From an uncultured Lachnospiraceae bacterium (lineage in GTDB: Bacteria > Bacillota > Clostridia > Lachnospirales > Lachnospiraceae): a DNA stretch of 64,000 nt. Within the stretch, counting starts at the first letter, position 1; every line of letters starts with the position of its first letter. Of this stretch, positions 45,148 through 63,879 are shown piece by piece. Location: the NCBI GenBank assembly GCA_947176505.1, contig CAMWQW010000006.1, forward strand, positions 1 through 64,000, given 5' to 3'. The position numbers and the translations under genes are program-made. Under the pieces are notes generated by a model that did no database searches, was not told where the DNA came from, and worked only from the letters and a program-made list of their open reading frames with translations.

Positions 45148-45197
45148 GAGGTAAAAAATTAAAAATATATTAATAGATATATAGAATAAACACAAAA

Positions 45198-45532: not shown

Positions 45533-45931
45533 TTTGAATCTTCGGCGACTGATATTTTAGCAGTCTATCGTCTGTTGTTATAAAAAAATCACACGATGCC
45601 AAAACGGCACACGCTACATGAAGTGCATCCATGTCTTTAGTGCCTGACTGCATAATCTCTTTTGCAATTTCAATCGTTTCCTCATTTCTATCATCACTGA
45701 CATAAAATGATTCATTCATATTCATAAACTCTGAAATAGCTTGCCGCTTATGCAAAAATCTATTCTTAGAATTTTCATAATCGAGCACATAGGATGTCCA
45801 AGTTTCAGTCTGTTATCTTTTATCATTTCCTGAATATGCAGCTTTGCTTCTGTCTCTAAATGTATCCTAATCTGTGTTTGGTCATCATATGGACGGTTAT
45901 AGCTACAATTATCTAAATAGACTCTCATCAA
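45480..45931 (-). pseudogene. PIN-domain (VapC-like) gene disrupted by a frameshift
   Basis: N-terminal PIN segment MMRVYLDNCSYNRPYDDQTQIRIHLETEAKLHIQEM is in one frame (45722-45931). The C-terminal PIN segment ...DMDALHVACAVLASCDFFITTDDRLLKY is in another frame (45480-45788). The two frames overlap around 45770-45790. Confidence 0.5.
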
Positions 45932-46015
45932 CCCATTCCTTCTTACATATAATTAAATCAGCCAGATATCGTTTCTCTTCGGATTTTCATCATAACATAA
46001 AGGCAATAGATAGTA

Positions 46016-46051
46016 AAGAACCTCCGACCGTAAATCAGAGGCTCTTTCTAC
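46016..46051 (-). repeat. copy 1 of the 36-bp direct repeat, 45 nt downstream of the 1811-aa gene stop (operon-end hairpin; weaker U-tract)
   Basis: Identical 36-mer to 45198-45233. Confidence 0.6.
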
Positions 46052-46095: not shown

Positions 46096-49000
46096 TCACT
46101 CGAGCAGGAACAATCTGGCACGATTCAACGATACCGTTCCAAATCCATCTATCTTGTACGTCTTTCCGTTTCTGATAAACTCAGACTCTACGAGAACAAA
46201 GATTCCCGCATTGTTGGTCTTGTCATCCGTAAGGCTCCTAAGTGAAACCACCGGTGCTTTAATCCGGTATACTTTACCCGGAAGTAAACCTATCTGGTCA
46301 GGATTCTGCGGGTCAGCCGCTGTCACAGGTACAAGCTTATTATCTGTAACCGTCCAGATTTCCGAACCGAACGGCGTCGCTTTAACAGTCTTGTCACCGA
46401 TGACAAACTCCTGCGTTCCGGCATCATCCTCATAATAGAAGCTGACCGTCACATTCTTGTTTGCTCCGATATTGCTATCTGCAAACTTAAAGTATACATC
46501 CACGGTATTGTCCAGAATTCCCTCGGTGTCATCGTCCGCCGTGTCTCTCCACTCCTGATCAAAGGGAACGGCAATGCTCTTCATCGGTGCGGAATTCTGC
46601 GCAAATCCGGACACAATAGCGACGTCCGAACCGTGTACGCCCGCACTGTACGCTGCCATAAGCGCATTGACAAAGAACTTACATTCGTCAACTCCCATTG
46701 CATTAGCAGCCACCTCACCTTCGCCGTATATGTATGGATATTCCGACTGCGCCAAATAGACCACATTGCCCTTACTGTAGCAATAATAGTTGTTCCGGGC
46801 GTCTTTTGGTGAAATACCGTATGCCGTATCTCTATTTCCGCCAAAGGTAAGCCATGTTGTTACATAAGCTTCTGTATACTCGCTCTTTAAGTTATTCTCA
46901 AAATTCAGCAGATACTCGGAAGCTCGCAGTCCTGTTCCGTTCTCAGCCATTTTCTCCGCAAAGGCAAAAGAATTGCCCGTCATCTCATACGGATAGTAAA
47001 GGATACTTCCTTCATTAATTTTATCCGCCCTTATTCCCGCACGCCGAGGTTCGTACATGCCCGCATTCAAACCTGCATATCTATGATACTGATTTGCCGC
47101 TCCCAAGCTGACAAAAGTTCTTCCTGAAGACCAGCCTAAACTCTCCGTCGCAAGTCCCGCGCTGTTGCCGCTCTTATTCTGACTGCATACGAGCAGACTC
47201 CTGCCCTCATTGATGTAATCGGCAAACGCCACACTATCCACAGTAACACCGTCATCCACAGTCAACACTACAACATCCCACAGATTCAGGTACTTAGGGT
47301 TCTTAGTTAAATTATCAGCTAATTCTTCAGGCGTAACCGTTTCAAATTCAAAAGCGAGATGTGAACTCGACTCCGCGTCTTTGAGTAATCTTGCCAGCAG
47401 AGAGTCATCCTTCTTCTTGTACATCGCTTCCAAATCAATATAATAGTCGCCTTTACTCTTTGTCACCTGCAGCACACGTATCTCTTCTTCATAAGAGCTG
47501 ACCAGTTCAAAATAGCCCTGCACGCTGGCTCGTCTGTATGGATTGCCACTATCCGTTACTTCTAACTTCCAAGGAATGATACCCGGACCCATACCGTTAA
47601 TCGTGACATCAATGACGTTGCCTTCATTGACATAGGCGCCGAATTCTTCGCCAAGCTCCTCCTCCGTACCGAAGATACCGTCATAATTCATATCTGCATA
47701 TAAGTGCATGGTTGTATCGCCGAAATAATCTTCGCCTCTGTTATTCTTAATCTGAAAAGCAATCCTGCCATGGTATTCTTCATTTTCATCCAAGACAAGC
47801 CGCTGCACCATGCTCACTCCGGAACCGCTGTCCGCGTCCTCGTTCACCAACTCAATCCGCGGCTTGGAAGTCTTCATTCTAGCCATAAATCCGGCATTCG
47901 ACATCGTATCCGATACGGTAAAAATACTGTCCTTATATTCTTCAACGGAAACCGCAGCCAACAGGAAATTATACATCACCGTATCTTCGGCAACATACTT
48001 CGTATTAATCGTATCTCTTGACGCGCCGCGGGCTGTTGCATCCGTGAAAAAGTCATTTTCAACCACGATCGGATATCCTGCCCGAAGATACTCTAACAAA
48101 TCCATCATCTTCTGCGATGTAATATCGTTGCTGTCATAACGGCTGTCACCAGTTACATCACCTAAATGATATACTTTACCATTCAATGACTCATCATTAT
48201 AAACCGCTCTTCTTGGCTGTCTGTCACCCAGATTCAGATTCTGCCCGTCAAGACCGATAAATATCATATCATAAGCGCCGTTAACATCTTCCCACTCACC
48301 GTTAAATTCCACTACGGATTTCACGTCTGTAGAAATGCCAAACTGCTTCTTGCTGTATAGAATCTGTTTACCCGTCTTCATGGCATCTGTCTTCCAGACA
48401 AGCTTTGTGTTCCCTTTGCTGTCCTCCTCTGTATGCAAATCGGAGATGATGGCTCCTGAAGTAAGATCAATGTTCGCCGTAGGCTGCAATTCCAGAATCG
48501 TCAGGTCATCAAATTCTCCCATAATACCTACGGAAAAATTAATGATATACTGAATCGCTCTGGCTTTGCTGACCTCAAAGGAAATTTGGTCATACTCCGC
48601 CAACGTAGTATTTTCTGCTTCAATCGCTGCTAATACATCACTGAATCCGGCTTTTGCCTTGAAATCGTCAAAAAACGCCGCAAAGTCATCACTGACAAGC
48701 ATTTCGTCATTAATGATATATATATTTTGGTTTACATAATTGTATCCATTGTCATCCTTATCCGGATAATCATCAGCCTTTAGCGTCATTTCTATGTTAG
48801 CCATCAAATCCGTGCCCGTATTGATAGCCTCAAAATAACCTGCCAAATCACGCTTTAATAACGCCTGCGCCAATAACTGATAATTCGTTCCGGCATATTT
48901 GTCAGTATCTGTCTCCTCCGCAATCGCGTAATCTACAATAATCGGTGTCAGCTCATCAGCCGCGCGGCTTAAAATTGCACTAACTATCCCCTCTCCCATG

Positions 49001-51516
49001 TCATTCGCGTCACCTAAAGGCGAATCGCCTTCAACATGCTGAATATAGCTGACCGATAATGACGGATTAAGAAACATATTCTGTCCGCTTTCCAGATAGA
49101 TTAAATCTGCCGCATTCACCATATCGGATGTCACTTCATCGGCTCTCACTGTCTGTACTTCAATCTGAAAAGCACTGTTCGCATTATCTCCGCCTGCAAG
49201 CGAACTGAATACATACTGCTTCAACCAGTTATTGGTTGTCTGACATCTGAAATAAACCGGCGCATTATAGACTCCTATCACCAAGTCGCTGTCTTTGCCT
49301 GTCTCAGCCAATTTGTAGTTACCTAAGCCGGGACCGACGTAGATAAATGTCGAATCAGGTGTCAATGTGGTGCTAAACAGACTGATTCCGTCTTCCGTCT
49401 CCGCCATATCTTCATTCAACATATAATCAGTAGACATGATATCATCTGCCCCGGCAAGTTCAGCCAGCTCATCGTCTGTCATCCGCTCAAACGAAAGCAC
49501 ATAGTACATCGTACCGCTCTCTTCGGAAGGCTCCTCTGTCTGAAGTGTATCATCCGTCGATGGCGTATTTGTATCACCTGTCGATGGCGCATTTGTGTCA
49601 TCCGTCGATGGCGTATTTGTGTCATCTGTCGATGGTGCATTTGTGTCATCTGTCGGTGGTGTGCTCGTATCATCCGTTGATGGTGTATTTATATCGGGTG
49701 TTGGCTGTTCTGGTGTCTGCGGCGGTTGTTCTGATGTTGATGTATCATCATCGGGTGTCTCCATATCAGAATCCGTTGGTGTACCTGCCACTAATCTTCT
49801 CCACTCACCTGCAAACACTGTGTTCTTGCTTAGGTCCAACAAAACTGCATCAGACATCACGCCGACGGAACTCGTCTCCGGTGCTGGTTGTGTTGGATCC
49901 GACTGTTCCGGCTGTTCTGGTGTTGGCGGCTGTTCTGGTGTTGGCGGTTGCTCTGGTGTTTCTGTACCGCTTCCCGGATTTTGCCCATCCCCCGGATTTG
50001 CAGGATCAATATCCGGAATAATCGGATTTATATCTGGCTGCTCCGTCGTACCATTATTGTCATTGTTATCATTGTTATCATTATTGTTATTATCATTACT
50101 ACTGTTATTATTATTGCTGTCATTGCTCGAATTGTCTACCCAGTCCTTAAAAACCTCACCGACCGTTCCCTGATAAACGTATCTGTCATCACTTTCATCA
50201 TATGTATAGATATCAAGCTCGTCAGAATAACCATTCGGTCCATTCATTGCATTGATTTCACTACTCACGGAAGCCTTATATGCAGGAGTGCCTTCCGGCA
50301 TGTTAGCATATTCTTCCAATGTTATCGCGTAAAATTTACCATTATCTTCATTATAAAAATAGACGAATCTTCCCAACGCTCCCGGGTTTTTCAAGGTTGA
50401 GCTTTTCTGTCCGCTGGACCAGACGAAATCATATCCTGCCTTGTCTTCTCCATCAACATATTTAAGGTAGGTGCCGCGGAAAATCCCGTCCGCCATATCA
50501 GCTTTATTGTTGCCGGATGTAATCTGATAAGTATCGTCTACCGTCACTTCCTGATTCGGAAACAACAGAGTCCAGCCATCCGCCTCCGCAACATTATGTA
50601 CTCCAAGATAAGCTTCTTTATACTGAATTCCCGGAAATGATGTAAATGAGGACTCCGGCACTAACAAGTTGAGAAAATCTTCTCTGCTCGCATAATGACG
50701 GAAAACCGGATTGCTCTTATATGCCTCTGCCAAATCATCCGCAAACGGAGCTTTTCCGCCTGCCAGATACCCCATTGAACCCGTAGTAAAAGAAAACCTT
50801 GTAGGGCTTGTATCCCCTGAACCTGTCGTACCGCCCGAACCAGCCGGCGCGTCGCAATACACTTCAGATGGAACAATATCCAGTATCTTATACGGATTAT
50901 CTTCTCCATGGTCTTCTACAATCTTGCCGATTCCCGCAAAAGATTCTTTCGCCATGGCTTCCGCCGGACGTAGATGTTGTACAACAGGATAAACTACTAT
51001 CGTCACCGCAAGAAGCATTGCGACACCGGACGCCGCCTTCTTCCACTTTTTTCTCTTTGAACCGAGAATAGGCTTCTCGTTGGTACTCTCAAGCATATAC
51101 TCGGGAATCTCGCCTTTTTTAATCTGTTCAATCTCTTTTTCTTTGGCAAGCGCTTCCCAATCCAGCTCCCCGGGATTAATTTTCCGGTGCTTTATGTGCG
51201 AAATAATCTGTGCTCTGGAAGCGTCCGCGCTCTTGAGCGATACAGATTCGTTCGCCGCCATATCAGATTCTTGCAATAAATCTGGTTTCTCCGGAGTATC
51301 AGACAACTTCGTATAATCGGACTCATTGAGGGTATCAGACGTTTTAGGAGCAGCAGCCTTCTCTGCCCCTTCATCATCTGCACGTTTTCTGCCCTTGTAT
51401 CTCAAGATACCAAAAACTCCCGTCGCCACTGCTGCAATCGAAGCGATTACAATAAGAACAATGTTTCTATTTTGTTTTTTCTTATTCCTTTTTATGCCTC
51501 TTCTCTTCTTTTTCAT
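46096..51516 (-). CDS. giant membrane-anchored protein of unknown function (about 1806 aa) with PT-rich and N/D-rich low-complexity linkers
   Basis: Continuous ORF. Start MKKKRRGIKRNKKK 5 codons inside the track's TTG start. Hydrophobic segments IVLIVIASIAAVATGVFGIL and AASGVAMLLAVTIVVYPVV. Linker runs NNNNSSNDNNNNDNNDNNDNN, PEQPPTPEQPPTPEQPEQ and (T/S)DDTN(A/T)PS x6. Recurring D-hhhh-xx-G-Q-N motifs (DMIFIGLDGQNLNLG, DLIYLESGQNMFLNPS, DVVVLTVDDGVTVDS). Confidence 0.6.
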   Translation of the reverse strand: MKKKRRGIKRNKKKQNRNIVLIVIASIAAVATGVFGILRYKGRKRADDEGAEKAAAPKTSDTLNESDYTKLSDTPEKPDLLQESDMAANESVSLKSADASRAQIISHIKHRKINPGELDWEALAKEKEIEQIKKGEIPEYMLESTNEKPILGSKRKKWKKAASGVAMLLAVTIVVYPVVQHLRPAEAMAKESFAGIGKIVEDHGEDNPYKILDIVPSEVYCDAPAGSGGTTGSGDTSPTRFSFTTGSMGYLAGGKAPFADDLAEAYKSNPVFRHYASREDFLNLLVPESSFTSFPGIQYKEAYLGVHNVAEADGWTLLFPNQEVTVDDTYQITSGNNKADMADGIFRGTYLKYVDGEDKAGYDFVWSSGQKSSTLKNPGALGRFVYFYNEDNGKFYAITLEEYANMPEGTPAYKASVSSEINAMNGPNGYSDELDIYTYDESDDRYVYQGTVGEVFKDWVDNSSNDSNNNNSSNDNNNNDNNDNNDNNGTTEQPDINPIIPDIDPANPGDGQNPGSGTETPEQPPTPEQPPTPEQPEQSDPTQPAPETSSVGVMSDAVLLDLSKNTVFAGEWRRLVAGTPTDSDMETPDDDTSTSEQPPQTPEQPTPDINTPSTDDTSTPPTDDTNAPSTDDTNTPSTDDTNAPSTGDTNTPSTDDTLQTEEPSEESGTMYYVLSFERMTDDELAELAGADDIMSTDYMLNEDMAETEDGISLFSTTLTPDSTFIYVGPGLGNYKLAETGKDSDLVIGVYNAPVYFRCQTTNNWLKQYVFSSLAGGDNANSAFQIEVQTVRADEVTSDMVNAADLIYLESGQNMFLNPSLSVSYIQHVEGDSPLGDANDMGEGIVSAILSRAADELTPIIVDYAIAEETDTDKYAGTNYQLLAQALLKRDLAGYFEAINTGTDLMANIEMTLKADDYPDKDDNGYNYVNQNIYIINDEMLVSDDFAAFFDDFKAKAGFSDVLAAIEAENTTLAEYDQISFEVSKARAIQYIINFSVGIMGEFDDLTILELQPTANIDLTSGAIISDLHTEEDSKGNTKLVWKTDAMKTGKQILYSKKQFGISTDVKSVVEFNGEWEDVNGAYDMIFIGLDGQNLNLGDRQPRRAVYNDESLNGKVYHLGDVTGDSRYDSNDITSQKMMDLLEYLRAGYPIVVENDFFTDATARGASRDTINTKYVAEDTVMYNFLLAAVSVEEYKDSIFTVSDTMSNAGFMARMKTSKPRIELVNEDADSGSGVSMVQRLVLDENEEYHGRIAFQIKNNRGEDYFGDTTMHLYADMNYDGIFGTEEELGEEFGAYVNEGNVIDVTINGMGPGIIPWKLEVTDSGNPYRRASVQGYFELVSSYEEEIRVLQVTKSKGDYYIDLEAMYKKKDDSLLARLLKDAESSSHLAFEFETVTPEELADNLTKNPKYLNLWDVVVLTVDDGVTVDSVAFADYINEGRSLLVCSQNKSGNSAGLATESLGWSSGRTFVSLGAANQYHRYAGLNAGMYEPRRAGIRADKINEGSILYYPYEMTGNSFAFAEKMAENGTGLRASEYLLNFENNLKSEYTEAYVTTWLTFGGNRDTAYGISPKDARNNYYCYSKGNVVYLAQSEYPYIYGEGEVAANAMGVDECKFFVNALMAAYSAGVHGSDVAIVSGFAQNSAPMKSIAVPFDQEWRDTADDDTEGILDNTVDVYFKFADSNIGANKNVTVSFYYEDDAGTQEFVIGDKTVKATPFGSEIWTVTDNKLVPVTAADPQNPDQIGLLPGKVYRIKAPVVSLRSLTDDKTNNAGIFVLVESEFIRNGKTYKIDGFGTVSLNRARLFLLE
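49545..49700 (-). repeat. 24-bp in-frame tandem repeats (about 6 copies) encoding (T/S)DDTN(A/T)PS
   Basis: tcatccgtcgatggcgtatttgtg-type units reiterated with point variants. Confidence 0.8.
49890..50140 (-). repeat. 18-bp repeats encoding PEQPPT x3, and AAT/GAT-rich microsatellite-like repeats encoding the N/D/S run
   Basis: ggctgttctggtgttggc x3 at about 49900-49955; attgttatcattgttatcattattgttattatc at about 50040-50140. Confidence 0.75.
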
Positions 51517-51546
51517 AATTAATCGCCCCAATACTTGCTTAAAAGA

Positions 51547-54500
51547 TTACTGTTTCGTCCACTGTGTTCCGTTAGATGTACAGGTCCATGTGCCATACTC
51601 TACGCCGGAAGTATACCCATTTACTAATTTAAGTGTATAGGTATCAGTACTTGCATCATAAGTATATTCCTTTTTAATGCCTCCCCAAGAATTCTGGGCA
51701 TTCTCCCCATATGTATCCGTTGCAAAGAAGTACTCTGTGACAGATTCACTATAACTGCCCGAAATATTTGGGAATCCGCTCTCAGACGGAAGCGGCGCTT
51801 CCAGCATACACTGACTGCCATTATACGTAAATCCAATGCGTGTACCCCAAATTGCCGTATCAACTCCTGTGTTGCTTCCTGCCTTTGTCCGGTTCCACTT
51901 TGCGCCGTCCCAGCTAAATGTTCCATAGTTATACACAATCTTCTTGCGTGGATTATTGGTCAGAATTTCCCTGATTATCTCTATCGTATATGCACTGCCG
52001 GATTTACTGCATTTCACAATACATTTCTCGATAAGCGCATCGCTGCTGCCATCCTTACTAAAGGATATCAACTGCCAGTTATTGAGCGTACTGTTGTTGT
52101 CAAACGCCCCTATCGGGAAATCTGCATCCGACGGCGTCGGGAAATAAGTCTCATACTGCTTATTATCCTTTGTAAACTCCAGATTCGTCTGAATATTCTC
52201 TATCTTCGTCTCTTCAAGTCCCACTCTGGTCCATTCAAGCTGTCCCATACTTGCTTCATACTTGCCGTAAATATGGGTGATAATCTGTCTACCGTTGATT
52301 TCCATAGATGACAATGTAATCCGGTACTTATCCTGTCCTAAATATTCACACATAACCGTGGCATTATCTATCGTCCCCCGCCACTGTCCATCCTTAGAGT
52401 ACGACGTAAAATTGTATATAATTTCTTGTTTCGTATCACTCCTTAAGTCAAATGGAAATGCTCTGTCCGACGGCACTGGAAAATTTGTCCATCTTTCCTC
52501 TCCGTTCACGTTTGGCAACTGCATATTTAACCCCATGTCAATTCTCAAGTTAATAACACAATCCCACTGCTTATAATAATATGTATCGTAATCTCCGGGC
52601 ACATTCTTATAGATAACATTATCTCCCGTATAAGCTCCTGCTCTGATATCCGGATTATTTGCATAGACAAATCCGGGCACAATATGATACATTCCACACG
52701 CTTCCTGCATCTCCTGCGCATTGCTGTTTGTCAGATTAGTCACCGTCGGATTAGACCCGGGCTGAAATACAATCTTTCCAAAACGATTTTGACCGGTGTT
52801 GTTTCCTTTATCATTATAATTGCCATCTCTGTCCGGCGATATCGGGAGCGCCCCAATTCTTGTTGTTCCGTTACGGTTATCCGCATATTCCTCCGTATCA
52901 TGCGCATACCCATAAACTCTCTTCCACCGACCGTTTTCATCCTCTTTGTACACCGTAAATCTAATGTTGTTAAGGACAGCTTCTCTCAATATGTTGATTG
53001 CACCAGCATCGGCAATCTCAATCATTCCCCCGAGAGGATTATTATTGGGTGTTGATAAAAATGAAAAATGCTCATAGCTTTCTTTCTCATCATTCGGATA
53101 CGTGACCCCATTAATCTTCACAGCTACAGACGGTTGATTCAATACTGCATAATAATATTCATCCGCATCAAACATCGTACCGATATACTTTCCGTTATCG
53201 TCACATTTGTTCAAATATTCTGTTTTAATCTCTTCTTTACTTGCCTCAGTCCTACTCCCTTTTGGTCTTGGATCAAGTACTTGGAAATAAATCTCATAAG
53301 ACTTCCTGTGATCTAATCCGAATGCATCGGGAGAAAAACGCTCGTTTGCGCCCTCTGTAAAATAGACCATTACATAATCATTCTGGCATCCGACTGTCCC
53401 TGCTTCTCTGACACGGACACAGAAAACATAACGAGAATGGTCTGTTTTTAAAGATGTACGCATATAGTCAAAAATTCCCGGGTCATTATCCGTACCGAAC
53501 TTAAGCTCCGATCCGATAAACTTCGCCCCGTTGTCGCCCTCGGTCACTCTGAGGATGAGCGTTCCTGTTACCGCTCCATAGCTCTTACGAAGAGACAAAT
53601 CAGACGTCGCCTCGATTTCAATTTCCTCACCTTTTTTCGCTGTCGATTTTATCTTAACTTCTGCTTCTCCCGTATCAGATGTCACAATCTCAGCAGGTCC
53701 TCTTACAATTCTCCATCTCGTTGCCGCAAGGTCATGATCCTTTGTCTCGTCATCCGTAAGGCAGGAATGCGCTTCACAGGATCTGCCTAACATATATCCC
53801 ACTGCACTACCGTTCACCGTAACCGTACTTCCGGCTTTGATGGTCGTTGACGCACAACTTAAGTCAACGCTGTTCACACGCTTGACATTAACCTGTACCG
53901 TCTTGGCTACCTTATCATTCTGATTGGCATACTCTTCATTTACGCGGGAAACTCTCACCAGAAAACTCTTGCGTGTCTCGTTCGTACCGATAGTTAACTG
54001 CCCGTCAGCCGAAACGGACGACGTCGTTGTTCCGGTATCCACCAGCTCCCACTTAACCGCCTGATCATCAGAATTGGTATCCACCTGCGTCTTGTCTGCA
54101 AGATTAAAGCTGTCCCCCGGCTCTAACACAATATCTCTCACTGTCGTAATCGTGAACTCGTTCGCCTTCTTCATCGGCTCAATATCAATCTTATTGAGTG
54201 CAATCCGGTTACGCACGGTTACATTATTGGAAGTGGTATACTCTTTATTGCCGTTCTGGAATGTCATGGAAATCATGACTACCCTGTTTTCTTCAAACTG
54301 GGAAATATCAATATGTAATTCTTTGACATGCTGCGCGAGAATCGCCCTGTTCGTATCATTAAACACCGGCTCCGGATTTGTATCATCTATCACGGTATCG
54401 CTCGTATTGAAATAAATCGTCTGCGTGTCCTTACTCCACTCGAAACGATAACTGTCATTATCATTATTGCTGCCCTTTTTATTGACTACTACCAATATTT

Positions 54501-54771
54501 TCTCATCAGGCTCACTGCTGAACTCGGAATCTTTCAGAACAAGTTCTGTCCCGTTGCCATAACTTATACTGTCCGTCGTATCTATAATCACGTCAGAAAT
54601 CTGATTTAAAGCGAGCTGCGCCTCCTGTTGTAACATGATGTCGGTGTTAGCCGATGTATAACTTCTGGATCCTACCACAATGAAACCACAGACTGCCAGC
54701 GTCACAATTGCTAGTATTGCTATCGCTATGATCAATTCCACCAATGTAAAACCTTTCTGATTTTTTCTCAT
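51547..54771 (-). CDS. giant prepilin-type protein (1074 aa) with an N-terminal class III signal and N-methylation motif
   Basis: MRKNQKG|FTLVELIIAIAILAIVTLAV is the classic prepilin cleavage and N-methyl motif (G-1, F+1, E+5). It is followed by about 1000 aa with Big_2-like stretches (LSCASTTIKAGSTVTVNGSAV) and many W/Y/N/G-rich beta-type segments. Confidence 0.6.
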   Translation of the reverse strand: MRKNQKGFTLVELIIAIAILAIVTLAVCGFIVVGSRSYTSANTDIMLQQEAQLALNQISDVIIDTTDSISYGNGTELVLKDSEFSSEPDEKILVVVNKKGSNNDNDSYRFEWSKDTQTIYFNTSDTVIDDTNPEPVFNDTNRAILAQHVKELHIDISQFEENRVVMISMTFQNGNKEYTTSNNVTVRNRIALNKIDIEPMKKANEFTITTVRDIVLEPGDSFNLADKTQVDTNSDDQAVKWELVDTGTTTSSVSADGQLTIGTNETRKSFLVRVSRVNEEYANQNDKVAKTVQVNVKRVNSVDLSCASTTIKAGSTVTVNGSAVGYMLGRSCEAHSCLTDDETKDHDLAATRWRIVRGPAEIVTSDTGEAEVKIKSTAKKGEEIEIEATSDLSLRKSYGAVTGTLILRVTEGDNGAKFIGSELKFGTDNDPGIFDYMRTSLKTDHSRYVFCVRVREAGTVGCQNDYVMVYFTEGANERFSPDAFGLDHRKSYEIYFQVLDPRPKGSRTEASKEEIKTEYLNKCDDNGKYIGTMFDADEYYYAVLNQPSVAVKINGVTYPNDEKESYEHFSFLSTPNNNPLGGMIEIADAGAINILREAVLNNIRFTVYKEDENGRWKRVYGYAHDTEEYADNRNGTTRIGALPISPDRDGNYNDKGNNTGQNRFGKIVFQPGSNPTVTNLTNSNAQEMQEACGMYHIVPGFVYANNPDIRAGAYTGDNVIYKNVPGDYDTYYYKQWDCVINLRIDMGLNMQLPNVNGEERWTNFPVPSDRAFPFDLRSDTKQEIIYNFTSYSKDGQWRGTIDNATVMCEYLGQDKYRITLSSMEINGRQIITHIYGKYEASMGQLEWTRVGLEETKIENIQTNLEFTKDNKQYETYFPTPSDADFPIGAFDNNSTLNNWQLISFSKDGSSDALIEKCIVKCSKSGSAYTIEIIREILTNNPRKKIVYNYGTFSWDGAKWNRTKAGSNTGVDTAIWGTRIGFTYNGSQCMLEAPLPSESGFPNISGSYSESVTEYFFATDTYGENAQNSWGGIKKEYTYDASTDTYTLKLVNGYTSGVEYGTWTCTSNGTQWTKQ

Positions 54772-54875: not shown

Positions 54876-55418
54876 CTACGGTATTGGAAGCAACTCCATC
54901 GTCGTCTTACCGGTCAGTCTCTCCAGATGGATATGATAATTCTTGCTGCCGCCGCGCACATAAATCTCCCACACATTTGTGGCAGTGGCGCCACTGTCCA
55001 AGCTCTCCAGAAACGAGCCTGAGCTTCTGTTAAAATATATCTCCCATGCGTCATCTCTTTGCGGTAAATCATCTCCGCCGTCCGTAGATCCGACCATGCA
55101 CCTTCGCGCCCCGATTTTCTCGGCACCGTTGTTGCCGGTTGTCCAACTGCCGGCTTCCAATGTCTGCAATTCACTGAATACCGTTCCGGTGTCATCTCTG
55201 TAGAGAAGCAGTCTCACATTGCCTCGTCCTGCGCTCATTGTCGCAATCTTACATTCCGAGATGGCACCTATAATGTCATTGGTGCAGGTTCTTGCATTGG
55301 CGCTGAAAACAAGCCCGACAGACAATGCCGCTGTCGTGAGAACCGCCGCTATGATTGCAATGACAATGATTAATTCCACAATAGAAAAACCACTGTTATT
55401 TTTCTCCATCCTGCGCAT
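54876..55418 (-). CDS. minor pilin/pseudopilin (180 aa)
   Basis: MRRMEKNNSG|FSIVELIIVIAIIAAVLTTA prepilin motif. Confidence 0.65.
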   Translation of the reverse strand: MRRMEKNNSGFSIVELIIVIAIIAAVLTTAALSVGLVFSANARTCTNDIIGAISECKIATMSAGRGNVRLLLYRDDTGTVFSELQTLEAGSWTTGNNGAEKIGARRCMVGSTDGGDDLPQRDDAWEIYFNRSSGSFLESLDSGATATNVWEIYVRGGSKNYHIHLERLTGKTTMELLPIP

Positions 55419-55439: not shown

Positions 55440-58130
55440 CTATTTCTTAATCCAGTTCTCGTACCTTACAATCTCTGAATAATCAATATTGAGATTGCCG
55501 GCTTCATCTACGTCTGCCTCCTCATAACCGCTCTTAATCATACCAGAACCGTTACAAAGAATATTCGCCGGAACGTTAACGTCTCCCGCCACTTCAGATT
55601 GTGCCTGAAGAACGGCATACACGCCCTCACCGTCTTTCTTGATTGTCGCATTATTCGAGACGGTAATCTTACCGCTTGCGATAATCAGACCTTGGAAATC
55701 TTTGGTGACTTCCACATCTCCTATGGCAACCACAAGTCTTAACTTGGAATCTGTCACTCTATATACGTTGCCCGGCTCTTTCTTGCTGTCTACCAATACT
55801 GCCTTCAAAATATTTGCGCCTTCACCGGTCGTAAACTCCACCTTGCCATGATTGTCGTCAAGATAATCCTGCAATCCTTCCGTACTCTCAGGATCCGTCG
55901 GATTGGTATTAAGCTTAACCAGATTCTCAAACACGTTCTCTTCCGTGCCCGGATCCTCTTCCAACAGGTTTTTCATCAGATTCTCATAACTTAAGATAAT
56001 CTCATCCGGCTCTTTTAACTCATTCTCACTGACAATCGTTTCCACATTGTCAGATACTTCTTCATAATCCCCTGCTTCTCCTGCCGGCGGATTCTCCTCG
56101 TCATCACCATCGCCTTCCGACGGATTATTCTCAACGCTTGATAAAAGTTTGACAATATTTTGCCCTTCCGGAGATGTCATGATTGCATCACCGTTTCCTG
56201 CATCTGTGGCGGATACCATACTGTTACCTACCACCGTATATCCCTGCACGTTGCCTTTCAGTCTGATACCACCCGAAACATACTGATTAAAGTAATTGTC
56301 CAGACTTGCTTTATTGCTGTTGACATTATAATACTGCGTGAAATATTTCGCAGCATTAACACTGTCCATCACCAGATACAGGTACACCTGCTCTTTTTCC
56401 GGCTTATAAAGGAATCTGACACCCGAACCGTTCGCAACTGCCTTTTGGTTCAATGCCGTTATGACAGCTACCGGATTCGTCAAATCTACAGCGCCCAAAT
56501 CAGTCGCCTTAATATCCGGTATTCCATAACTGCTCAGCTTCCCGCCGCCTAACTTTGTCACTTCCCTGCTGGCATCCACAATTCTGAAAACTTCATCATC
56601 ATCATCGGCTCCGCCCTCCGGCGTTGATGTACCATCCCCTGCTCCCGGTGTCTGATAATCGGCAAGACTCTTTAACATTTCACTCCATGTCTCAAAAGAT
56701 ACCGGATTCTGTCCGACCACAGGTGTTCCGTTCAAAGTACCCACACACTCCGGCGGAACAAGATAGGCAATCTGATTACTCTTGACGGAAATAGACTCTC
56801 CCATCAGCACATGAGGCATCCCGTTGTCTTTCTCATCATCCTTAGCTAAGCTGACGTATGCCCTTCCCGCAAGCTGCAAAGTAGTAAGCCCTGTCAAATC
56901 CACAGACGTATTCTTTCCGTTAATCACAATAGCGCTGCTCGTGTTCGCCGGATTAACCCTCTGCAGTTCTTTGACAACCTTGCCGTCACTGTCTAACACA
57001 ACATGCCCGTCGTCATCAAGCTTCGGCGCTTCCTCTTCATGAGTCGTCTCATTCGTATTGCCGTAGCCGTAATACTGTCCTGCCAGCGACACGTTACTGC
57101 CCTTGCCGGACAAGATTAAATCATTTGCTATATACATTCTTCCGGAAACATCTAAATGCCCGCCATTTAACGCCAGTCCGTTCGCATAGACATTCGTCCG
57201 GAATCCTTTACTTCCCTGCGTTACATTTCTTATGATTAATTCTGCATCCTGATTGACCATGCTCGTAAAGATAGGATCGTTACCGACAACGATATCCCCG
57301 CCCGAAATAACATAGGACGCGTCCTCAATCAGCACATGACTGTTTCTGGCAATCTGGATACCGCCTTTGCTGTCTTCATCGACTCCGCCGTAAATATTGC
57401 CGTTTATTGCAATCGTATTGGCGTCCATCTCAATTCCCTCATCGCCGATTAATACATACGGATACAATCTGTCAATGGTTCCAGCCTGTGTAAAACGCAG
57501 CTTCGGCACATCAATAGCTATATCCGTATTGATGATGGACAGATAATCATTGGTATCGTAATACTCGATACATATATTCTGAAGTACCATGCTTCCGTAG
57601 CCGTTTACGGCATTTGCGGCTTTAAATTCAGCTACGGCGTTATCCCACGTATCGTTCACGATATATCCGTCACCATTCGGGTCGCTCTCATCCCACCATT
57701 CAGAATCCACGAAACCTTTCAGCATATCCTTGTCGTAACGGTTCGGAGACCCTGTCGGAGTTGTTCCGAACCTGCTCTCAACTGCCGCAATATACGCCGT
57801 AATGAAATAGCTCTCACGGTTCGCATCCGTCCCCAGCGCATCCCAATTGCTCACCACTTCCTGATACGCCTCATTGATTGCTTTCGAGACCTCACGCTTC
57901 ACACCAGCCTCAATCTGCTCCACCACCGTCTCTGCGGAATAAAAGCTGTTCTTCACCTTCAAGTCATTGATTTTAATACGATAATTAAGATAAGCCGCCC
58001 ACAGGATCGTAGTCGCTAGTACGCCTATTAATGCCATGGCGATAATCACGATTACAATCGCCGAACCTCTGTCGTCCCTCTTATTCAGTTTTTCTCGAAG
58101 CAGATTTTTGCTCTTGCACAGCTTTTTCAT
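55440..58130 (-). CDS. large PilX-N-like pilus protein (896 aa)
   Basis: The N-terminus DDRGSAIVIVIIAMALIGVLATTILWAAY resembles the PilX N-terminal motif (G-S, no Glu+5); a long G/N/D-rich beta region follows. Confidence 0.5.
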   Translation of the reverse strand: MKKLCKSKNLLREKLNKRDDRGSAIVIVIIAMALIGVLATTILWAAYLNYRIKINDLKVKNSFYSAETVVEQIEAGVKREVSKAINEAYQEVVSNWDALGTDANRESYFITAYIAAVESRFGTTPTGSPNRYDKDMLKGFVDSEWWDESDPNGDGYIVNDTWDNAVAEFKAANAVNGYGSMVLQNICIEYYDTNDYLSIINTDIAIDVPKLRFTQAGTIDRLYPYVLIGDEGIEMDANTIAINGNIYGGVDEDSKGGIQIARNSHVLIEDASYVISGGDIVVGNDPIFTSMVNQDAELIIRNVTQGSKGFRTNVYANGLALNGGHLDVSGRMYIANDLILSGKGSNVSLAGQYYGYGNTNETTHEEEAPKLDDDGHVVLDSDGKVVKELQRVNPANTSSAIVINGKNTSVDLTGLTTLQLAGRAYVSLAKDDEKDNGMPHVLMGESISVKSNQIAYLVPPECVGTLNGTPVVGQNPVSFETWSEMLKSLADYQTPGAGDGTSTPEGGADDDDEVFRIVDASREVTKLGGGKLSSYGIPDIKATDLGAVDLTNPVAVITALNQKAVANGSGVRFLYKPEKEQVYLYLVMDSVNAAKYFTQYYNVNSNKASLDNYFNQYVSGGIRLKGNVQGYTVVGNSMVSATDAGNGDAIMTSPEGQNIVKLLSSVENNPSEGDGDDEENPPAGEAGDYEEVSDNVETIVSENELKEPDEIILSYENLMKNLLEEDPGTEENVFENLVKLNTNPTDPESTEGLQDYLDDNHGKVEFTTGEGANILKAVLVDSKKEPGNVYRVTDSKLRLVVAIGDVEVTKDFQGLIIASGKITVSNNATIKKDGEGVYAVLQAQSEVAGDVNVPANILCNGSGMIKSGYEEADVDEAGNLNIDYSEIVRYENWIKK

Positions 58131-58244: not shown

Positions 58245-59726
58245 TCACTGATTCATATTGGTAATGGTGGCAAGTCTGTGCACTTCGTCATTGTCTTCAA
58301 AGTTGCTTTCCGTAAAATGCTTCGCCGCTCCGGTCTGATAAACTGTAATTTCTACATCATAAATAATATTTGTTACTTTATCACTTGTCGTATTTCCCGA
58401 AAAAGTACACTGGTTCACATTGTGGGAAATATTCGCATTATATGTATAAAGCACTCCGCTGATTAAGTCTCTCTCTCCCGTAGCCTGATTTTTAATCATA
58501 TTGGTATCCGCATTGGTTCTGAAAGTCAGATTGCCATCCATCGAAGTATCCGCCCCAACATCGACAAGCGCGCGGTAGGCGGTCTCCTTCGCCCATAGCT
58601 CGGCATCCGTCAAATCAGGTGCAATCACATTCGCATCCACATCGACTACCGACCGTATCTGCTTCGCCAGCGTGATGCTTTTCAATAACGGTTGTTCTTT
58701 ATCGCACAGTTTTGCAGCATCCTTAATCTTAAATTGTATGTTGTCTACTAAGCCTGATTTGTAAATAGGGTAGTAAAAAAGATAAAAATTACCGCTTGAA
58801 AAAGTGCGGGTGACATCGACTACCTTGCCGCCCTCCGAACCGTCATATCCGTTGCTTGTGTAAGTATAGGTAGTCTCGCCGTATGTGTAACTACAGTCAT
58901 ATGTAAAATTAATTGTAGCTTTACACCGATCATTGCCGCCGTCTTCCAGTACAATTTCTATCGTCCTCTTTGTGACAATATCTTCTAATTTCAAATCGTC
59001 CCAATCATCCGGAAGCGTTCCGCCAACTGCCGCAATATCATCTGCAATCTGCAGCTTTACATCTTTTAAGACGGCTTCGCTTAATTTCTTGCTTTCATGA
59101 TAACTGCTGTCCGTCTTCATTGCATCCTCGTCACCACCGCCGTTTATTTCAGCTACGCTTCCGATTTCGGCGTAGAACTTGCCGTTAAACTCTCTGTCAT
59201 GTACACCCCCGGGGTTATTGACTGTCCCGCTGGCATCTATCTTTTTTGAATTAGCACCGTAAGTAGATGCGTCCAATCTAATCAGCGCATCGTACTCCGC
59301 GCCCTGCATCTTGAGATTCTCAATGCCGAAATAATATATTTCGTCACCCTCTACATGTCCGTCCATGTCTTCCGTCAAGTCTCTGACACCGCCCTGAATC
59401 ATGCTGCTATTCACAATATAGAAGCCATCCGACGGGTAGTGGAAAACGTCTCCGCTTACACCTTCCGGCGGTTCAAACTGCGCACTCACTTCCTCCAGCG
59501 TATATGCCTTGAGTCCCTCCATGATATCCTGTGCTACCGTAGTCGCACGCAGTGTCTGTCTGGACTTCACATTGATTCTTGTGGATGTGACAAACATATG
59601 TAACAGCGGTGCAACGATAATCGCAAGAATCGTCACCGCAATCAACAGCTCAACCAAGGAAAAACCTGCGTTTGGGTTCTTTCTATATGCTTTATTCAGT
59701 TGCCCTTTTTGCGTACTACTATTCAT
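58245..59726 (-). CDS. minor pilin, PilV/PilW-like (493 aa)
   Basis: 20-aa leader, then NAG|FSLVELLIAVTILAIIVAPLL prepilin motif. Confidence 0.6.
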   Translation of the reverse strand: MNSSTQKGQLNKAYRKNPNAGFSLVELLIAVTILAIIVAPLLHMFVTSTRINVKSRQTLRATTVAQDIMEGLKAYTLEEVSAQFEPPEGVSGDVFHYPSDGFYIVNSSMIQGGVRDLTEDMDGHVEGDEIYYFGIENLKMQGAEYDALIRLDASTYGANSKKIDASGTVNNPGGVHDREFNGKFYAEIGSVAEINGGGDEDAMKTDSSYHESKKLSEAVLKDVKLQIADDIAAVGGTLPDDWDDLKLEDIVTKRTIEIVLEDGGNDRCKATINFTYDCSYTYGETTYTYTSNGYDGSEGGKVVDVTRTFSSGNFYLFYYPIYKSGLVDNIQFKIKDAAKLCDKEQPLLKSITLAKQIRSVVDVDANVIAPDLTDAELWAKETAYRALVDVGADTSMDGNLTFRTNADTNMIKNQATGERDLISGVLYTYNANISHNVNQCTFSGNTTSDKVTNIIYDVEITVYQTGAAKHFTESNFEDNDEVHRLATITNMNQ

Positions 59727-59812: not shown

Positions 59813-60655
59813 TTAATCTTCCTCGTCCTCGTCTTCTTCATCGCCGTCTTCGGCTGCATCATTATTCTCTATATCTTCCAGTCCGCGCTCACCGTAGAGT
59901 TCTATGGAGCCAAAGATATTATCCGTGCCTAACAGAACAGAGGAAAAGTTCGGTACCACATATTCCTTGCCCGGCTGTCCCGGAATACAGTACATGTCAA
60001 CACTGGTCGTGCCCGTGAGAAGTCCCGTAGACTCGTCATATGATACCGTTAGGTTATCGATACTCATTCTGTTATCCTGAACACTAATATTTTTAATACC
60101 TCTTTTTAATCCCTCATAGGACACAAGGTAATTAAACGTCACATTACGCGCCATCAGTATAGACGGCATGTTCTCTGTACCCAGTCCGTTGCCGCTTGGG
60201 TCCGCCGCAGAAGCTGAAACATCGTCGCTGATGCCCTCCTGTGCCTCATACTCCTCTATCTCATCAATCTCGTAAGTATGACTCACATCTTCTTCCTCGC
60301 TCTGCAGAACAACCGGCTCGCATGCACTGATACTGATACTGCTGATTAACATCGGAGAAATCAATTCCTGACTGATGGCGAGCAGAATACTGTCTTCCTC
60401 TCTGACATCTATCGGAAATTCCTTGAAAATCGCATCCATTTCCCGATTCATGCTCTCCGTCTCCGCAATATAAGAATCTTTATTCTCCATCTTGGAACTC
60501 AGGTCATTAATTCTTGCCTGAAGCTGCACATTCTCCTGTTCCAAAGCGTCAGCTTTCTCCATCGTCGGCTGAAATACAAAGAAATAGGAGCAGACTGCCG
60601 CCAAAATCCCAATAAAGCCTACAAGGAGTAATATATCTCTTTTAGAAACTTTCAT
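59813..60655 (-). CDS. pilO: type IV pilus assembly protein PilO-like
   Basis: 280 aa; single N-terminal TM then a coiled coil (ADALEQENVQLQARINDLSSKMEN); acidic C-terminal tail. Confidence 0.55.
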   Translation of the reverse strand: MKVSKRDILLLVGFIGILAAVCSYFFVFQPTMEKADALEQENVQLQARINDLSSKMENKDSYIAETESMNREMDAIFKEFPIDVREEDSILLAISQELISPMLISSISISACEPVVLQSEEEDVSHTYEIDEIEEYEAQEGISDDVSASAADPSGNGLGTENMPSILMARNVTFNYLVSYEGLKRGIKNISVQDNRMSIDNLTVSYDESTGLLTGTTSVDMYCIPGQPGKEYVVPNFSSVLLGTDNIFGSIELYGERGLEDIENNDAAEDGDEEDEDEED

Positions 60656-60667
60656 GCTCTCATCCCC

Positions 60668-62308
60668 CTACTCTTCCGTGTTTGATGCACTGTCTGCATC
60701 CGCCTCATCATCCGTATCACTCAAGGAAGGCGCATGTACATCCCTGTAGAGTGCCGCCACTGAGAAGTTCACGGAGATTGTTCCTGCTTCCTCGTCAATC
60801 TCCTCCACTACGGAATTGACCGTCACGCTGGTTGGAATCAAGCTGTCAAAAGAACGGAGCTGTTCGACGGCTGCCGCCGCTTCACTCTTGCTGCTCACAT
60901 CCATATTAATCGCTACACCGTCTATCGTACTTGTAAAAGAAACTACATGGACATCACTGGGCATTTTGCTCTCAAGCTCTTCCAGAAATTCTACAAGTTC
61001 TTCGTTCCTGTTTTCCGTCTGTCCATACATCGCCGTCACTAAATTATAAGATGCCAACGTCGCTGTATATTCATTATAAATAGGAATAATCGCTTCCAGA
61101 TCGGAATTCTGCGCTTTTAACTCCATATTCTGCTTCTCTAATCCCATATACCGCAGAATGGAAACTGCCGCCAGCGCAATTGCTATGGCAAGTCCCAAGC
61201 CCAAAATCGCATAAGCAATCGGCGCAGGATTGATTCCGCCTTTTCCGCCTGCTGCCTTGTCTTTACCTTTTGCCTTCTCTGCGTCTTTCTTGAATCCTAG
61301 CGGAGCCGCAGCCGCACCTACGCTGGCAACATATTCACCATAATACTGTGTTCTGAAACTTTTCTCCAGATTCCATCCCGGTATCTGACGCAATACCTCG
61401 ACCGGAAGGTTCAAATCTCTCGCAAGCAGTTCCGCCAAACCTTTAATATTGGCGCCAAGACCTGTAATATAGACAACCTCGACAGATGCATCCGAGTTAT
61501 GAGATGTATAGTAATCCACAACCCTGCTGATGCCTGATGTGAGCGGCGCAATCGCTTCTACCATCTCGGGTGAACCGATACAGTCATTCATCGACACCAC
61601 TTCCATTGCCGCCTGAACTGAATCAGCTTCAGCCCATCTCTTGGAATCTATGACTGTTTGTATCGCTTCCTCCGCACCGTATGCCACATTTCTAACAAAT
61701 GCAAGTCTGGCATCATGAATCGCCATCACAAGCGAAGAACGTTCATCAATCTTAATCACAAGGCTCGTGCCCTGTGCATGTTTATCTTTTGCCACCTGAA
61801 ATACACTGTTGCCGGCGTAATCGATTGCGGCAAGTTCCAGCTTCAATGCTTTTGCCAAATCATAATATCCGTTAAGGAGCGCACTCGGCGCCGCCAATAC
61901 AAGCAGTTTATACTGCTGCGTACCTTTTGGATCACCCAAAACTCCCAAAATGCTGTATGCAAGCTGATACTGACTTAAATCTACAGGAAAATAATCGGAG
62001 GCATTGGCATTCACCACATCCGCAATACGATTCTCCTTCACATACGGAATCGTGACCTCGCGACTCGCAATCCTTCCTGAAGTGATGGTAAACACCACCT
62101 GTTTTGTCTTAATCTTTCTCTCTGTAAGCGCGGTAGTTAACGTCTCTATGTATTCCGGCGTCGGCGTAAGCACACCGTCATTGATAACCCCTTCCGCAGT
62201 CGGTATCGTAAAAGATCTGTATACCTTATGTGTTTTAGCCTTATAATCAACCTCGCAGACCCTTGTCAACGAGTATCCGATCTCTATACTGATCGCTTTA
62301 GCAGCCAT
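60668..62308 (-). CDS. pilMN: PilM-PilN fusion protein
   Basis: 546 aa; N-terminal actin-like PilM (ISIEIGYSLTRVCEV...), a TM segment (IAYAILGLGLAIAIALAAVSIL), and a C-terminal PilN-like region. Confidence 0.7.
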   Translation of the reverse strand: MAAKAISIEIGYSLTRVCEVDYKAKTHKVYRSFTIPTAEGVINDGVLTPTPEYIETLTTALTERKIKTKQVVFTITSGRIASREVTIPYVKENRIADVVNANASDYFPVDLSQYQLAYSILGVLGDPKGTQQYKLLVLAAPSALLNGYYDLAKALKLELAAIDYAGNSVFQVAKDKHAQGTSLVIKIDERSSLVMAIHDARLAFVRNVAYGAEEAIQTVIDSKRWAEADSVQAAMEVVSMNDCIGSPEMVEAIAPLTSGISRVVDYYTSHNSDASVEVVYITGLGANIKGLAELLARDLNLPVEVLRQIPGWNLEKSFRTQYYGEYVASVGAAAAPLGFKKDAEKAKGKDKAAGGKGGINPAPIAYAILGLGLAIAIALAAVSILRYMGLEKQNMELKAQNSDLEAIIPIYNEYTATLASYNLVTAMYGQTENRNEELVEFLEELESKMPSDVHVVSFTSTIDGVAINMDVSSKSEAAAAVEQLRSFDSLIPTSVTVNSVVEEIDEEAGTISVNFSVAALYRDVHAPSLSDTDDEADADSASNTEE

Positions 62309-62486: not shown

Positions 62487-63239
62487 TCAGAACTGTCCCA
62501 AATACCATGTAAGCATCTGATTGCCCCACATCGCTGCAATAAAAACGCCTGCTGAAAGATATGGTCCCATTGCAAGCACATGGTCTTCATTACTCACCTT
62601 CATGCGAATCACATGAATGAATGCACCTAAAATGCAGCCTAATAAAAATGCAATAATAATCAGTTTCCATCCAAGAAATAATCCGCAGGCTGCCATCAGC
62701 TTCACATCACCACCACCGATTGCCCGTCCTTTGGAGGCATAATATAAAATTGCAAGTACCGCACTGACGGCTAAGAAGCCAATCAGGTAGCTAAGGATAT
62801 GATGATAGTCCAATGCTGCCCGAATCAGCCCCAGCGCCAGTATAAACAGATTGATTCCAAATGGAATCTCATAAGTTCTAAAATCAATCACGCTCAGTAC
62901 AAGGAGCGCAGACACAAGTAAACAGTAGAGTAGGGAGTCTACGTTTACCCCATGAATACATACGATCATCACGTATAAGATTCCGTTCACTGCCTCAATC
63001 AGAGGATACTGGACGGAGAGCTTTGCCCCACAAAAGCGGCATTTTCCTCGCAAAAACAAATAACTGAACAGTGGAAACATATCATACCACTTCAGTTGTT
63101 TGCCACACGACATACAGTGCGACCTTGTCTTCACGATATCTTCATGCTCCGGAATACGGTAAACGCAAACGTTTAAGAAGCTGCCGATTACGATTCCGAA
63201 GAAAAATATAATGATGTAAAATATAATGTCTACGAGCAT
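62487..63239 (-). CDS. pilD: prepilin peptidase (A24 family) PilD
   Basis: 250 aa; N-terminal Cys-rich zinc site (CMSCGKQLKWYD...CRFCGAKL) and polytopic TM. Confidence 0.9.
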   Translation of the reverse strand: MLVDIIFYIIIFFFGIVIGSFLNVCVYRIPEHEDIVKTRSHCMSCGKQLKWYDMFPLFSYLFLRGKCRFCGAKLSVQYPLIEAVNGILYVMIVCIHGVNVDSLLYCLLVSALLVLSVIDFRTYEIPFGINLFILALGLIRAALDYHHILSYLIGFLAVSAVLAILYYASKGRAIGGGDVKLMAACGLFLGWKLIIIAFLLGCILGAFIHVIRMKVSNEDHVLAMGPYLSAGVFIAAMWGNQMLTWYLGQF

Positions 63240-63420: not shown

Positions 63421-63879
63421 TTAATTTGTAGCTCCAAGCATTCTATTGCTAAACAGATCAGCCGATGCCTCATTATCCGCACTATACTGGAAATTAAGAT
63501 TACCATTATTAACAGTCCATGTAATAGTATAGTCTTCCCAGTTTGTTCTGCTCTGTCTTCTTGTATGCAATACACCACTAGCATCTAACAGACCTGCATC
63601 AGCCAAAGCTGCTGCTGCAAAACTACCAGTAGCAGGTGTCTGGTCAGCTGTACCAATTGTTATTGACCCAGCAGCTGGTGCTACCGTCGAATCAGGATCA
63701 GCTGCATAAATCTGTAATGCTGATACAATTTCAGCCGCATTCTGCAAATCTGTCGAATTACGGGATCTCTCCACATACTTTAAGTACTGAGGTGCAAGTA
63801 CTACAAGCAAGATAGCCATAATCGCAATAACGATGATCAACTCAACAAGGGAAAAACCTTTGTTATTCATTTTTTTCAT
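63421..63879 (-). CDS. pilA: type IV (major) pilin
   Basis: MKKMNNKG|FSLVELIIVIAIMAILLVVLAPQYLKYVERSRN prepilin motif; 152 aa; AAGGAGAAAG RBS. Start moved from the track's 63957. Confidence 0.75.
   Translation of the reverse strand: MKKMNNKGFSLVELIIVIAIMAILLVVLAPQYLKYVERSRNSTDLQNAAEIVSALQIYAADPDSTVAPAAGSITIGTADQTPATGSFAAAALADAGLLDASGVLHTRRQSRTNWEDYTITWTVNNGNLNFQYSADNEASADLFSNRMLGATN

Follow-up and report, generated by a model that had tools for sequence, protein, structure and literature searches.

A probable modular GspJ-class minor pilin with a large beta-rich extension, and a candidate tip adhesin, in a type IV pilus gene cluster of an uncultured Lachnospiraceae bacterium

What purpose is served by a type IV pilin whose C-terminal part is several times larger than the pilin itself? 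This question is raised by a gene on a stretch of 64,000 nt from an uncultured Lachnospiraceae bacterium (GCA_947176505.1, contig CAMWQW010000006.1, positions 1-64,000; hereafter the window), which encodes a protein of 1074 amino acids (aa) with a prepilin-type N-terminus. Overall, we regard it as probable that this protein is a modular minor pilin of a Clostridia-type type IVa pilus (T4aP) and that its extension, displayed at the pilus tip, serves as an adhesin. The 1074-aa open reading frame (ORF) is real and lies exactly where the initial annotation had placed it; the strand, left unstated there, is the minus strand, which also carries all other genes of the neighbourhood. The gene and its leader are as follows:

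51547..54771, minus strand: whole gene of the predicted 1074-aa modular minor type IV pilin, stop codon included (ORF list and translation)
54751..54771, minus strand: leader peptide MRKNQKG (residues 1-7), ending in the Gly-1 cleavage site (direct reading, N_methyl and TIGR02532 matches)

The start codon is ATG, and a Shine-Dalgarno-like aaagga about 12 nt upstream of it (aaaggaN12ATG) provides a plausible ribosome-binding site. The N-terminus, MRKNQKG/FTLVELIIAIAIL (the slash denotes the cleavage site; the same N-terminus is given elsewhere as FTLVELIIAIAILAIVTLAVCGFIVVG and FTLVELIIAIAILAIVTLAVCGF), combines a short basic leader, G-1, F+1, E+5 and a hydrophobic stretch of about 21 aa, i.e., a canonical class III (prepilin) signal peptide. 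Its earlier description as a textbook prepilin leader is borne out by profile matches above cut-off for both Pfam N_methyl (PF07963; 38.8 bits vs. 21.2, E 5.6e-10) and TIGR02532 (28.2 bits vs. 16.3). A regular-expression search of all six-frame ORFs yielded four canonical G-x-x-x-x-E prepilin motifs in the whole window, every one of them inside the pilus gene cluster, and the ORF under study is, as had been noted, by far the largest of the four.

The Pfam match spans only about 26 residues and hydrophobic N-termini are common, both of which would suit a protein that is not a pilin at all and whose N-terminal helix simply anchors some unrelated surface protein in the membrane, the very outcome that the initial annotation had named as fatal to its proposal. 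An AlphaFold2 model of residues 1-200 (36 aligned sequences; predicted local distance difference test, pLDDT, 84.8; predicted template modelling score, pTM, 0.73) gave a pilin fold instead, with a long N-terminal alpha1 helix (residues 10-63) on an antiparallel beta-sheet of eight strands reaching to residue 185, and with the fold of a GspJ head domain. The module and the scores obtained for its model against PDB structures are listed below:

54178..54750, minus strand: mature pilin module (residues 8-198), with F+1, E+5, the alpha1 helix to residue 63 and an eight-strand beta region (68-185)
10.8: TTHA1219 type IV-like pilin, Thermus (5g23)
9.5: XcpW/GspJ (3nje)
9.2: EpsJ (2ret_B)
8.8: GspJ (3ci0_J)
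7.7: modular minor pilin PilB, Streptococcus sanguinis (7b7p)
5.2: best non-pilin match
4.0-4.2: GspI and GspK chains

The predicted fold and its pilin matches, as well as the syntenic stand-alone pilins considered next, contradict a simple membrane anchor, to which we attach a negligible probability, and we are highly confident that the protein is a modular minor pilin of the GspJ class. One 1101-aa family member (P0182, NCBI MDE5940181.1) bears the name "type II secretion system GspH family protein", in conflict with the GspJ-class fold; the name probably reflects similarity confined to the shared N-terminal helix.

The C-terminal limit of the pilin is marked both by the model and by natural relatives that stop there:

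54166..54192, minus strand: flexible linker between pilin module and extension (residues 194-202), pLDDT <50 in the full-length model

No other linker in the full-length model has low confidence. Residues 1-200, used as a query, retrieved stand-alone pilins (198-205 aa) with 30-59% identity across the entire module; the two closest (P0124 and P0127, 198-199 aa) end at aligned residues 199 and 198, inside the linker, and a more distant one (P0137, 205 aa) fills the same slot. The boundary between pilin and extension is thus located at about residue 198-202. The gene order of the short-pilin loci matches that of the window: PilC, pilin, PilD, PilMN, a PilO-like gene, a pilin of about 500 aa, a product of about 835 aa, a pilin of about 180 aa, the short pilin and a product of about 1400 aa; one such locus (L004) continues after the last of these with TopA, CodY and a flagellar rod gene. 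Because these syntenic relatives carry a version of about 200 aa, the protein is best described as a minor pilin with a grafted C-terminal extension of about 870 residues, and the extension as dispensable for the pilin role. The possibility that the extension has moved to a neighbouring gene in the short-pilin genomes was rejected, the 1475-aa protein of L004 being an orthologue of the DUF5057 protein encoded next to the gene under study in the window and lacking similarity to the extension. In two distant loci with a 205-aa pilin (L005 10717-20618 and L006 9919-19820) the downstream genes differ, comprising a 159-aa ORF, a 1408-aa protein and a protein of >1800 aa that carries LRR_5 and multiple Big_2 domains. 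Large surface proteins seem to recur, in varying form, beside minor-pilin genes.

The extension itself is resolved by the full-length model (pLDDT 82.7, 61 aligned sequences), which is beta-rich throughout, into roughly six or seven domains:

53536..54165, minus strand: two immunoglobulin (Ig)-like beta-sandwich domains, residues 203-298 and 299-412
52507..53529, minus strand: central beta-rich region, residues 415-755 (about 340 aa), no Pfam or PDB relative
52507..53091, minus strand: M2, hypervariable cassette-like sub-segment, residues 561-755 (low identity in close relatives; high nonsynonymous divergence, dN, from L001)
52186..52500, minus strand: repeat R1, residues 758-862 (hhalign R1/R2 99.6%, E 4.5e-24; repeat hidden Markov model, HMM, E 2.7e-32)
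51871..52158, minus strand: repeat R2, residues 872-967 (hhalign R2/R3 99.2%; repeat HMM E 8.9e-28)
51550..51813, minus strand: repeat R3, residues 987-1074 (hhalign R1/R3 98.7%; repeat HMM E 6.6e-18)

The pair of Ig-like domains probably forms a stalk. The central region has strongly conserved motifs, including invariant R453, R478, D482, Y492, Q497, Y529, G693 and Y695. It is followed by three tandem, aromatic-rich beta-sandwich repeats of about 100 aa, which are mutually homologous in hhalign comparisons (probabilities of 98.7-99.6%, E from 1e-16 to 5e-24) and share the signature FPxPS[DE]xxFPF ... YGxY ... W. No internal repeats were found by self-BLAST of the protein, which is blind to them, so that profile-profile comparison was needed. 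The aromatic-rich beta segments mentioned in the initial annotation are indeed present, with F+W+Y at 14% in residues 420-560 and 760-1074 vs. 4-7% in residues 1-420. Its Big_2-like stretches may hold at the level of the fold and do not at that of the sequence: Big_2 (PF02368) gave no match at E<=10 in the protein and none at E<=0.01 in any of 42 family members, and the modelled Ig-like domains would resemble Big_2 in fold only. As to the domain annotation that had been called for, the Ig-like domains and repeats were resolved by the model and by profile comparison; Pfam and NCBIfam searches of the protein and of the same 42 family members detected no domain besides the N-terminal motif. Sequence searches of PDB with whole-family and repeat profiles returned only the N-terminal part of the alpha1 helix (alpha1N) or insignificant matches, and a Foldseek search of PDB with the whole model returned only generic multi-Ig chains (template modelling scores of 0.07-0.17), uninformative for function. 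A protein search with the repeat profile gave one 85-aa match, apparently limited by candidate selection.

A comparison across the family supports the same division of the protein. The family comprises >270 clusters at 90% identity, all of 850-1270 aa and all with only the N_methyl signature, from bins named only as Lachnospiraceae or Eubacterium sp. When the extension alone was searched exhaustively by phmmer against 1.84 billion representative proteins, only 42 clusters were recovered, nearly all of them proteins of 850-1230 aa along with a few shorter partial sequences; the match usually starts at about residue 210-250, which places the extension directly after the pilin module. No domain of the protein is shared with other proteins of the window or of the related loci. 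By these searches, the extension appears to be restricted to one Lachnospiraceae pilin family.

Mean identity across this family is 72% for the pilin module vs. 36-47% for the extension domains, and the number of repeats varies from one to four. Between close relatives (P0005, P0007 and P0009) M2 is only 48-52% identical, as compared to mostly 70-92% for Ig1, Ig2 and R1-R3 and 68-73% for M1, the segment adjacent to it. Relative to the orthologue in L001 (9995-13195), dN of M2 reaches 0.49-0.54 vs. 0.06-0.19 for the flanking domains, whereas relative to L002 it is 0.09. This pattern suggests, as far as sequence comparison goes, recombinational replacement of one segment in an otherwise close gene. 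All domains have dN/dS <= 0.33, indicative of purifying selection, although these ratios are rough since synonymous sites are saturated (dS of about 1 or more). The overall pattern is that of a conserved assembly module joined to a presumably exposed, diversifying effector. A protein 100% identical to the one under study, deposited at NCBI from a metagenome-assembled genome under the generic name of a prepilin-type N-terminal cleavage/methylation domain protein, is encoded in full on a 447-kb contig of the Lachnospiraceae metagenome bin GCA_029059645.1; the gene is therefore not fragmented in this other assembly, a fate that the initial annotation had thought possible. Given this identical protein, the >270 homologue clusters and the purifying selection in all domains, the gene is no assembly artefact.

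The design as such is known. A survey by Raynaud et al. (2021; PMC8179133) counted >1200 modular pilins in 264 architectures and predicted many more with modules that lack database signatures; the C-terminal effector modules of such pilins are modelled at the pilus tip (PMC8179133). The prototype, PilB of Streptococcus sanguinis (7b7p; Raynaud et al., 2021; PMC8179133), has the same design. PilB has about 460 aa and a single recognisable von Willebrand factor A (vWA) module with a metal ion-dependent adhesion site (MIDAS), whereas the protein under study has an extension of about 870 aa with some six to seven domains, none of them in Pfam and not found outside its pilin family. A pilin module joined to a C-terminal module via a short linker, as expected of a modular pilin, is present; the second hallmark, a well-defined functional module shared with proteins unrelated to type IV pili, was not recognised in the extension. 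Since the extension is unrecognised and occurs only behind a pilin module, the protein is grouped with CofB and ComZ, which count as modular pilins although their modules go unrecognised (PMC8179133). GspJ, XcpW and EpsJ, and their T4aP equivalents PilW and PilJ, are non-modular proteins of about 150-250 aa, and similarity to them is limited to the N-terminal 100 or so residues. TTHA1219 of Thermus thermophilus (5g23), with 191 residues in the crystal and no C-terminal extension, is only 6-7% identical. CofB of enterotoxigenic Escherichia coli and TcpB of Vibrio cholerae are alike in having a pilin module, a flexible linker, extra unrecognised beta-rich domains and a location at the tip (PMC8179133), and unlike in being type IVb trimers of about 500 aa with two extra domains; neither gave a sequence or structural match here. 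PilC/PilY1 is similarly a large, variable, multi-domain effector held at the pilus tip via a conserved carrier (PMC8179133; PMC12918778). PilY1 is a non-pilin that docks by a C-terminal beta-propeller and a strand, whereas the protein under study is itself a pilin and has no beta-propeller match. It adds an example to this design rather than a new type of system; its novelty lies in the assignment of the carrier to the GspJ class, a graft point backed by natural short orthologues, and three undescribed domain types together with their variability.

Whether this carrier belongs to a pilus or to another machine is addressed by its gene neighbourhood, which in the window comprises:

63421..63879, minus strand: 152-aa candidate major pilin, MKKMNNKG/FSLVELIIV (N_methyl 34.2 bits; exact 152-aa product on record)
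62487..63239, minus strand: prepilin peptidase PilD (Pfam A24_N_bact E 4e-35, Peptidase_A24 E 1e-20)
60668..62308, minus strand: PilM(-N) fusion (Pfam PilM_2, TIGR01175)
59813..60655, minus strand: PilO-like gene (position only)
58245..59726, minus strand: 493-aa minor pilin with a weakly PilV/GspI-like N-terminus (N_methyl 30.7 bits; TIGR02523 PilV 29.5 bits vs. cut-off 52.2)
55440..58130, minus strand: 896-aa protein with a prepilin-like, non-canonical N-terminus ..DRG/SAIVIVIIAMAL, a candidate GspK/PilX-like tip subunit
54876..55418, minus strand: 180-aa minor pilin, weakly GspH-like (N_methyl 26.2 bits; NCBIfam GspH below cut-off)
46096..51531, minus strand: DUF5057 protein of about 1800 aa, not a pilin, likely ATG at 51516 (Pfam DUF5057 E 5.7e-23)

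The ORF at 63421-63957 (minus strand, 178 aa) starts at an upstream TTG, whereas in the recorded gene translation begins at the ATG at 63879 and yields the 152-aa prepilin. The N-terminus of the 896-aa protein (..KRDDRG/SAIVIVIIAMALIG, i.e., SAIVIVII) is kept in five orthologues and lacks Glu5, as does GspK; no match to this protein was found in Pfam, NCBIfam or PDB, and, if pilin-like, it would also be unusually large. Profiles of the three neighbouring minor pilins matched PDB entries over alpha1N only, hence their H-, I- and K-like labels are tentative. The peptidase and assembly genes expected alongside a prepilin are present, PilD and PilM in the window, and PilC, PilB (MshEN and T2SSE) and PilT just outside it on the same contig, together with a 318-aa gene without assigned function, dprA and a comM-like gene. 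This gene set is that of a retractile Clostridia-type T4aP.

Next to dprA and comM, one might think of natural transformation and view the extension as a DNA receptor, in the manner of ComZ at the Thermus pilus tip. The pilus cluster (pilB to the DUF5057 gene) lies between dprA/comM and topA-codY-flgB (window 42056-45075 and, upstream of the window, L003 1-10000), with pilT parted from pilB by the comM-like gene and dprA, and with topA, codY and the flagellar operon downstream of the cluster. In Bacillus subtilis, dprA(smf)-topA-...-codY-flgB forms one contiguous neighbourhood, which we take to be a conserved housekeeping order in Firmicutes. Because of this order the pilus cluster looks inserted rather than functionally linked, and a competence connection via dprA/comM was set aside as inherited gene order. 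The extension is, furthermore, net acidic (119 D+E vs. 92 K+R in residues 200-1074), and no beta-propeller, beta-solenoid or known DNA-binding domain was detected in it; a role as DNA receptor is accordingly very improbable.

For the modular minor pilin that we favour, the following course of events may be envisaged. After Sec translocation and anchoring in the membrane by alpha1, PilD would cut after Gly7, releasing the 7-residue leader, and the new N-terminus would be methylated. The processed protein would then join the 493-aa I-like, the 896-aa K-like (without Glu5) and the 180-aa H-like pilins in an initiation complex, which would prime polymerisation of the 152-aa major pilin; as part of a priming complex it would therefore come to lie at the distal end of the filament. 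The minor pilins GspI, GspJ and GspK are indeed described, in PMC12918778 and in PMC8179133 (citing Korotkov and Hol, 2008), as a filament-initiation complex that stays at the distal tip. By analogy with these systems a location at the pilus tip is likely, and the tip or decorating subunit proposed in the initial annotation would agree with the GspJ/PilW-class fold, with the position amid minor-pilin genes and with the published modular-pilin model (PMC8179133). At the tip, the Ig-like stalk, the central region and the repeats would together form an exposed adhesin, its most plausible target being a polysaccharide or glycan surface, and retraction driven by PilT would pull the cell to the bound target. 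That the extension is an adhesin is about an even call. A glycan or polysaccharide ligand is plausible because the beta-sandwich repeats are rich in aromatic residues, because it would suit the way Lachnospiraceae live, and because type IV pili mediate adhesion to cellulose in Ruminococcus albus, a gut Firmicute (reviewed in PMC6916266).

The DUF5057 gene is co-oriented and starts about 30 nt after the stop codon of the pilin gene. The N-terminus of its product is basic and hydrophobic. Around residue 170, where the L004 orthologue (48% identical) starts, lies a second hydrophobic stretch that resembles a signal sequence; synteny is kept with the long as well as the short pilin. Low-complexity tracts, encoded by tandem DNA repeats at 49546-49695 (period 24/48), 49909-49960 (18) and 50053-50120 (15), consist of Asn/Asp-rich, PEQP and DDT[NS]xPST runs, and the last residues of the protein are conserved between the window (..ARLFLLE) and L004 (..TKLFLLE). 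It is pure speculation, modelled on what is proposed for PilY1 (PMC12918778), that the DUF5057 protein, though no pilin, may dock at the tip by adding a C-terminal beta-strand. No papers on DUF5057 were found in a literature search. A strong terminator-like hairpin lies 3' of the gene at 46047-46015; the same hairpin (33-37 nt; AAAGAGCCTCTGATTTACGGTCGGAGGTTCTTT) occurs twice on the minus strand (45195-45231 and 46015-46047), flanking a segment of about 0.8 kb with a small ORF (45480-45788) that matches the C-terminal half of a PIN domain (19.8 bits vs. cut-off 23.6) and is apparently truncated or frameshifted. The arrangement is reminiscent of a decayed toxin-antitoxin insertion whose target or terminator was duplicated.

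The proximity of this gene feeds two other explanations. In one of them, the extension would not bind a ligand itself but act as a structural stalk or scaffold on which another component of the tip is docked and held at a distance (e.g., the DUF5057 protein, as a functional analogue of PilY1). CofB, which serves CofJ as an adapter, is a published precedent (PMC8179133), and spacers are commonly built from Ig-like domains and tandem beta-sandwich repeats. Yet the DUF5057 orthologue is kept where the pilin has only 199 aa, so that the DUF5057 protein is independent of the extension, and the hypervariable M2 and the variable number of repeats look like diversification of an exposed specificity determinant; we consider a scaffold unlikely. 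The other would have the cluster encode a type II secretion-like or endopilus machine, with the protein as its GspJ-like pseudopilus cap and the extension helping a substrate such as the DUF5057 protein through the wall. The fold class is that of type II secretion GspJ proteins, a giant co-transcribed protein with a signal-like N-terminus is encoded directly 3', and a preprint on Clostridium perfringens connects a set of type IV pilus genes with the secretion of a protein of the biofilm matrix (bioRxiv 10.1101/2024.11.04.621531). With PilT and a T4aP gene set standing against it, a secretion machine is, in our estimate, slightly less likely still.

Several observations weigh against a tip-borne adhesin on a GspJ-class minor pilin. 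How a subunit of about 115 kDa passes the Gram-positive wall is an unexplained point. The pilus works without the extension, as the short orthologues attest, and the role of the extension could be an accessory one other than adhesion. As to the ligand, no lectin, CBM (carbohydrate-binding module), vWA or other binding domain was recognised in the extension. The assignment to the GspJ class rests on a predicted structure; the sequence family TIGR01711 scores 20.0 bits vs. a cut-off of 64.85 and covers residues 6-104 only, for which reason we speak of a GspJ-class fold and not of a GspJ orthologue. The neighbours' I-, K- and H-like labels depend on weak matches or on position, and the organism is known from metagenome bins only, all support being computational. 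The modular, tip-displayed adhesin nevertheless remains the reading that we hold to be probable.

A bolder and rather doubtful extrapolation would see in the central region (residues 415-755), which is modelled with confidence, a new fold that lends the tip a role so far not described for type IV pili, as a new class of glycan or fibre receptor or even a tip-borne enzyme, with M2 as an exchangeable specificity cassette. If true, the enlarged 493-aa and 896-aa pilins and the DUF5057 protein of about 1800 aa would add up to a tip assembly of >4000 residues, beyond any characterised type IV pilus tip complex.

To our knowledge, the type IV pili of gut and rumen Clostridia have barely been studied. 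Three uncharacterised domain types, namely the central region, the M2 segment and the FPxPS..FPF..W repeat, could be defined as new families. The Lachnospiraceae loci provide, moreover, a natural with/without experiment, in which the same gene order holds either a pilin of about 200 aa or the same module with an appendage of about 870 aa. With natural long and short forms, variable repeats and an exchangeable segment, this family offers a good handle on how Lachnospiraceae pili may gain binding specificity.

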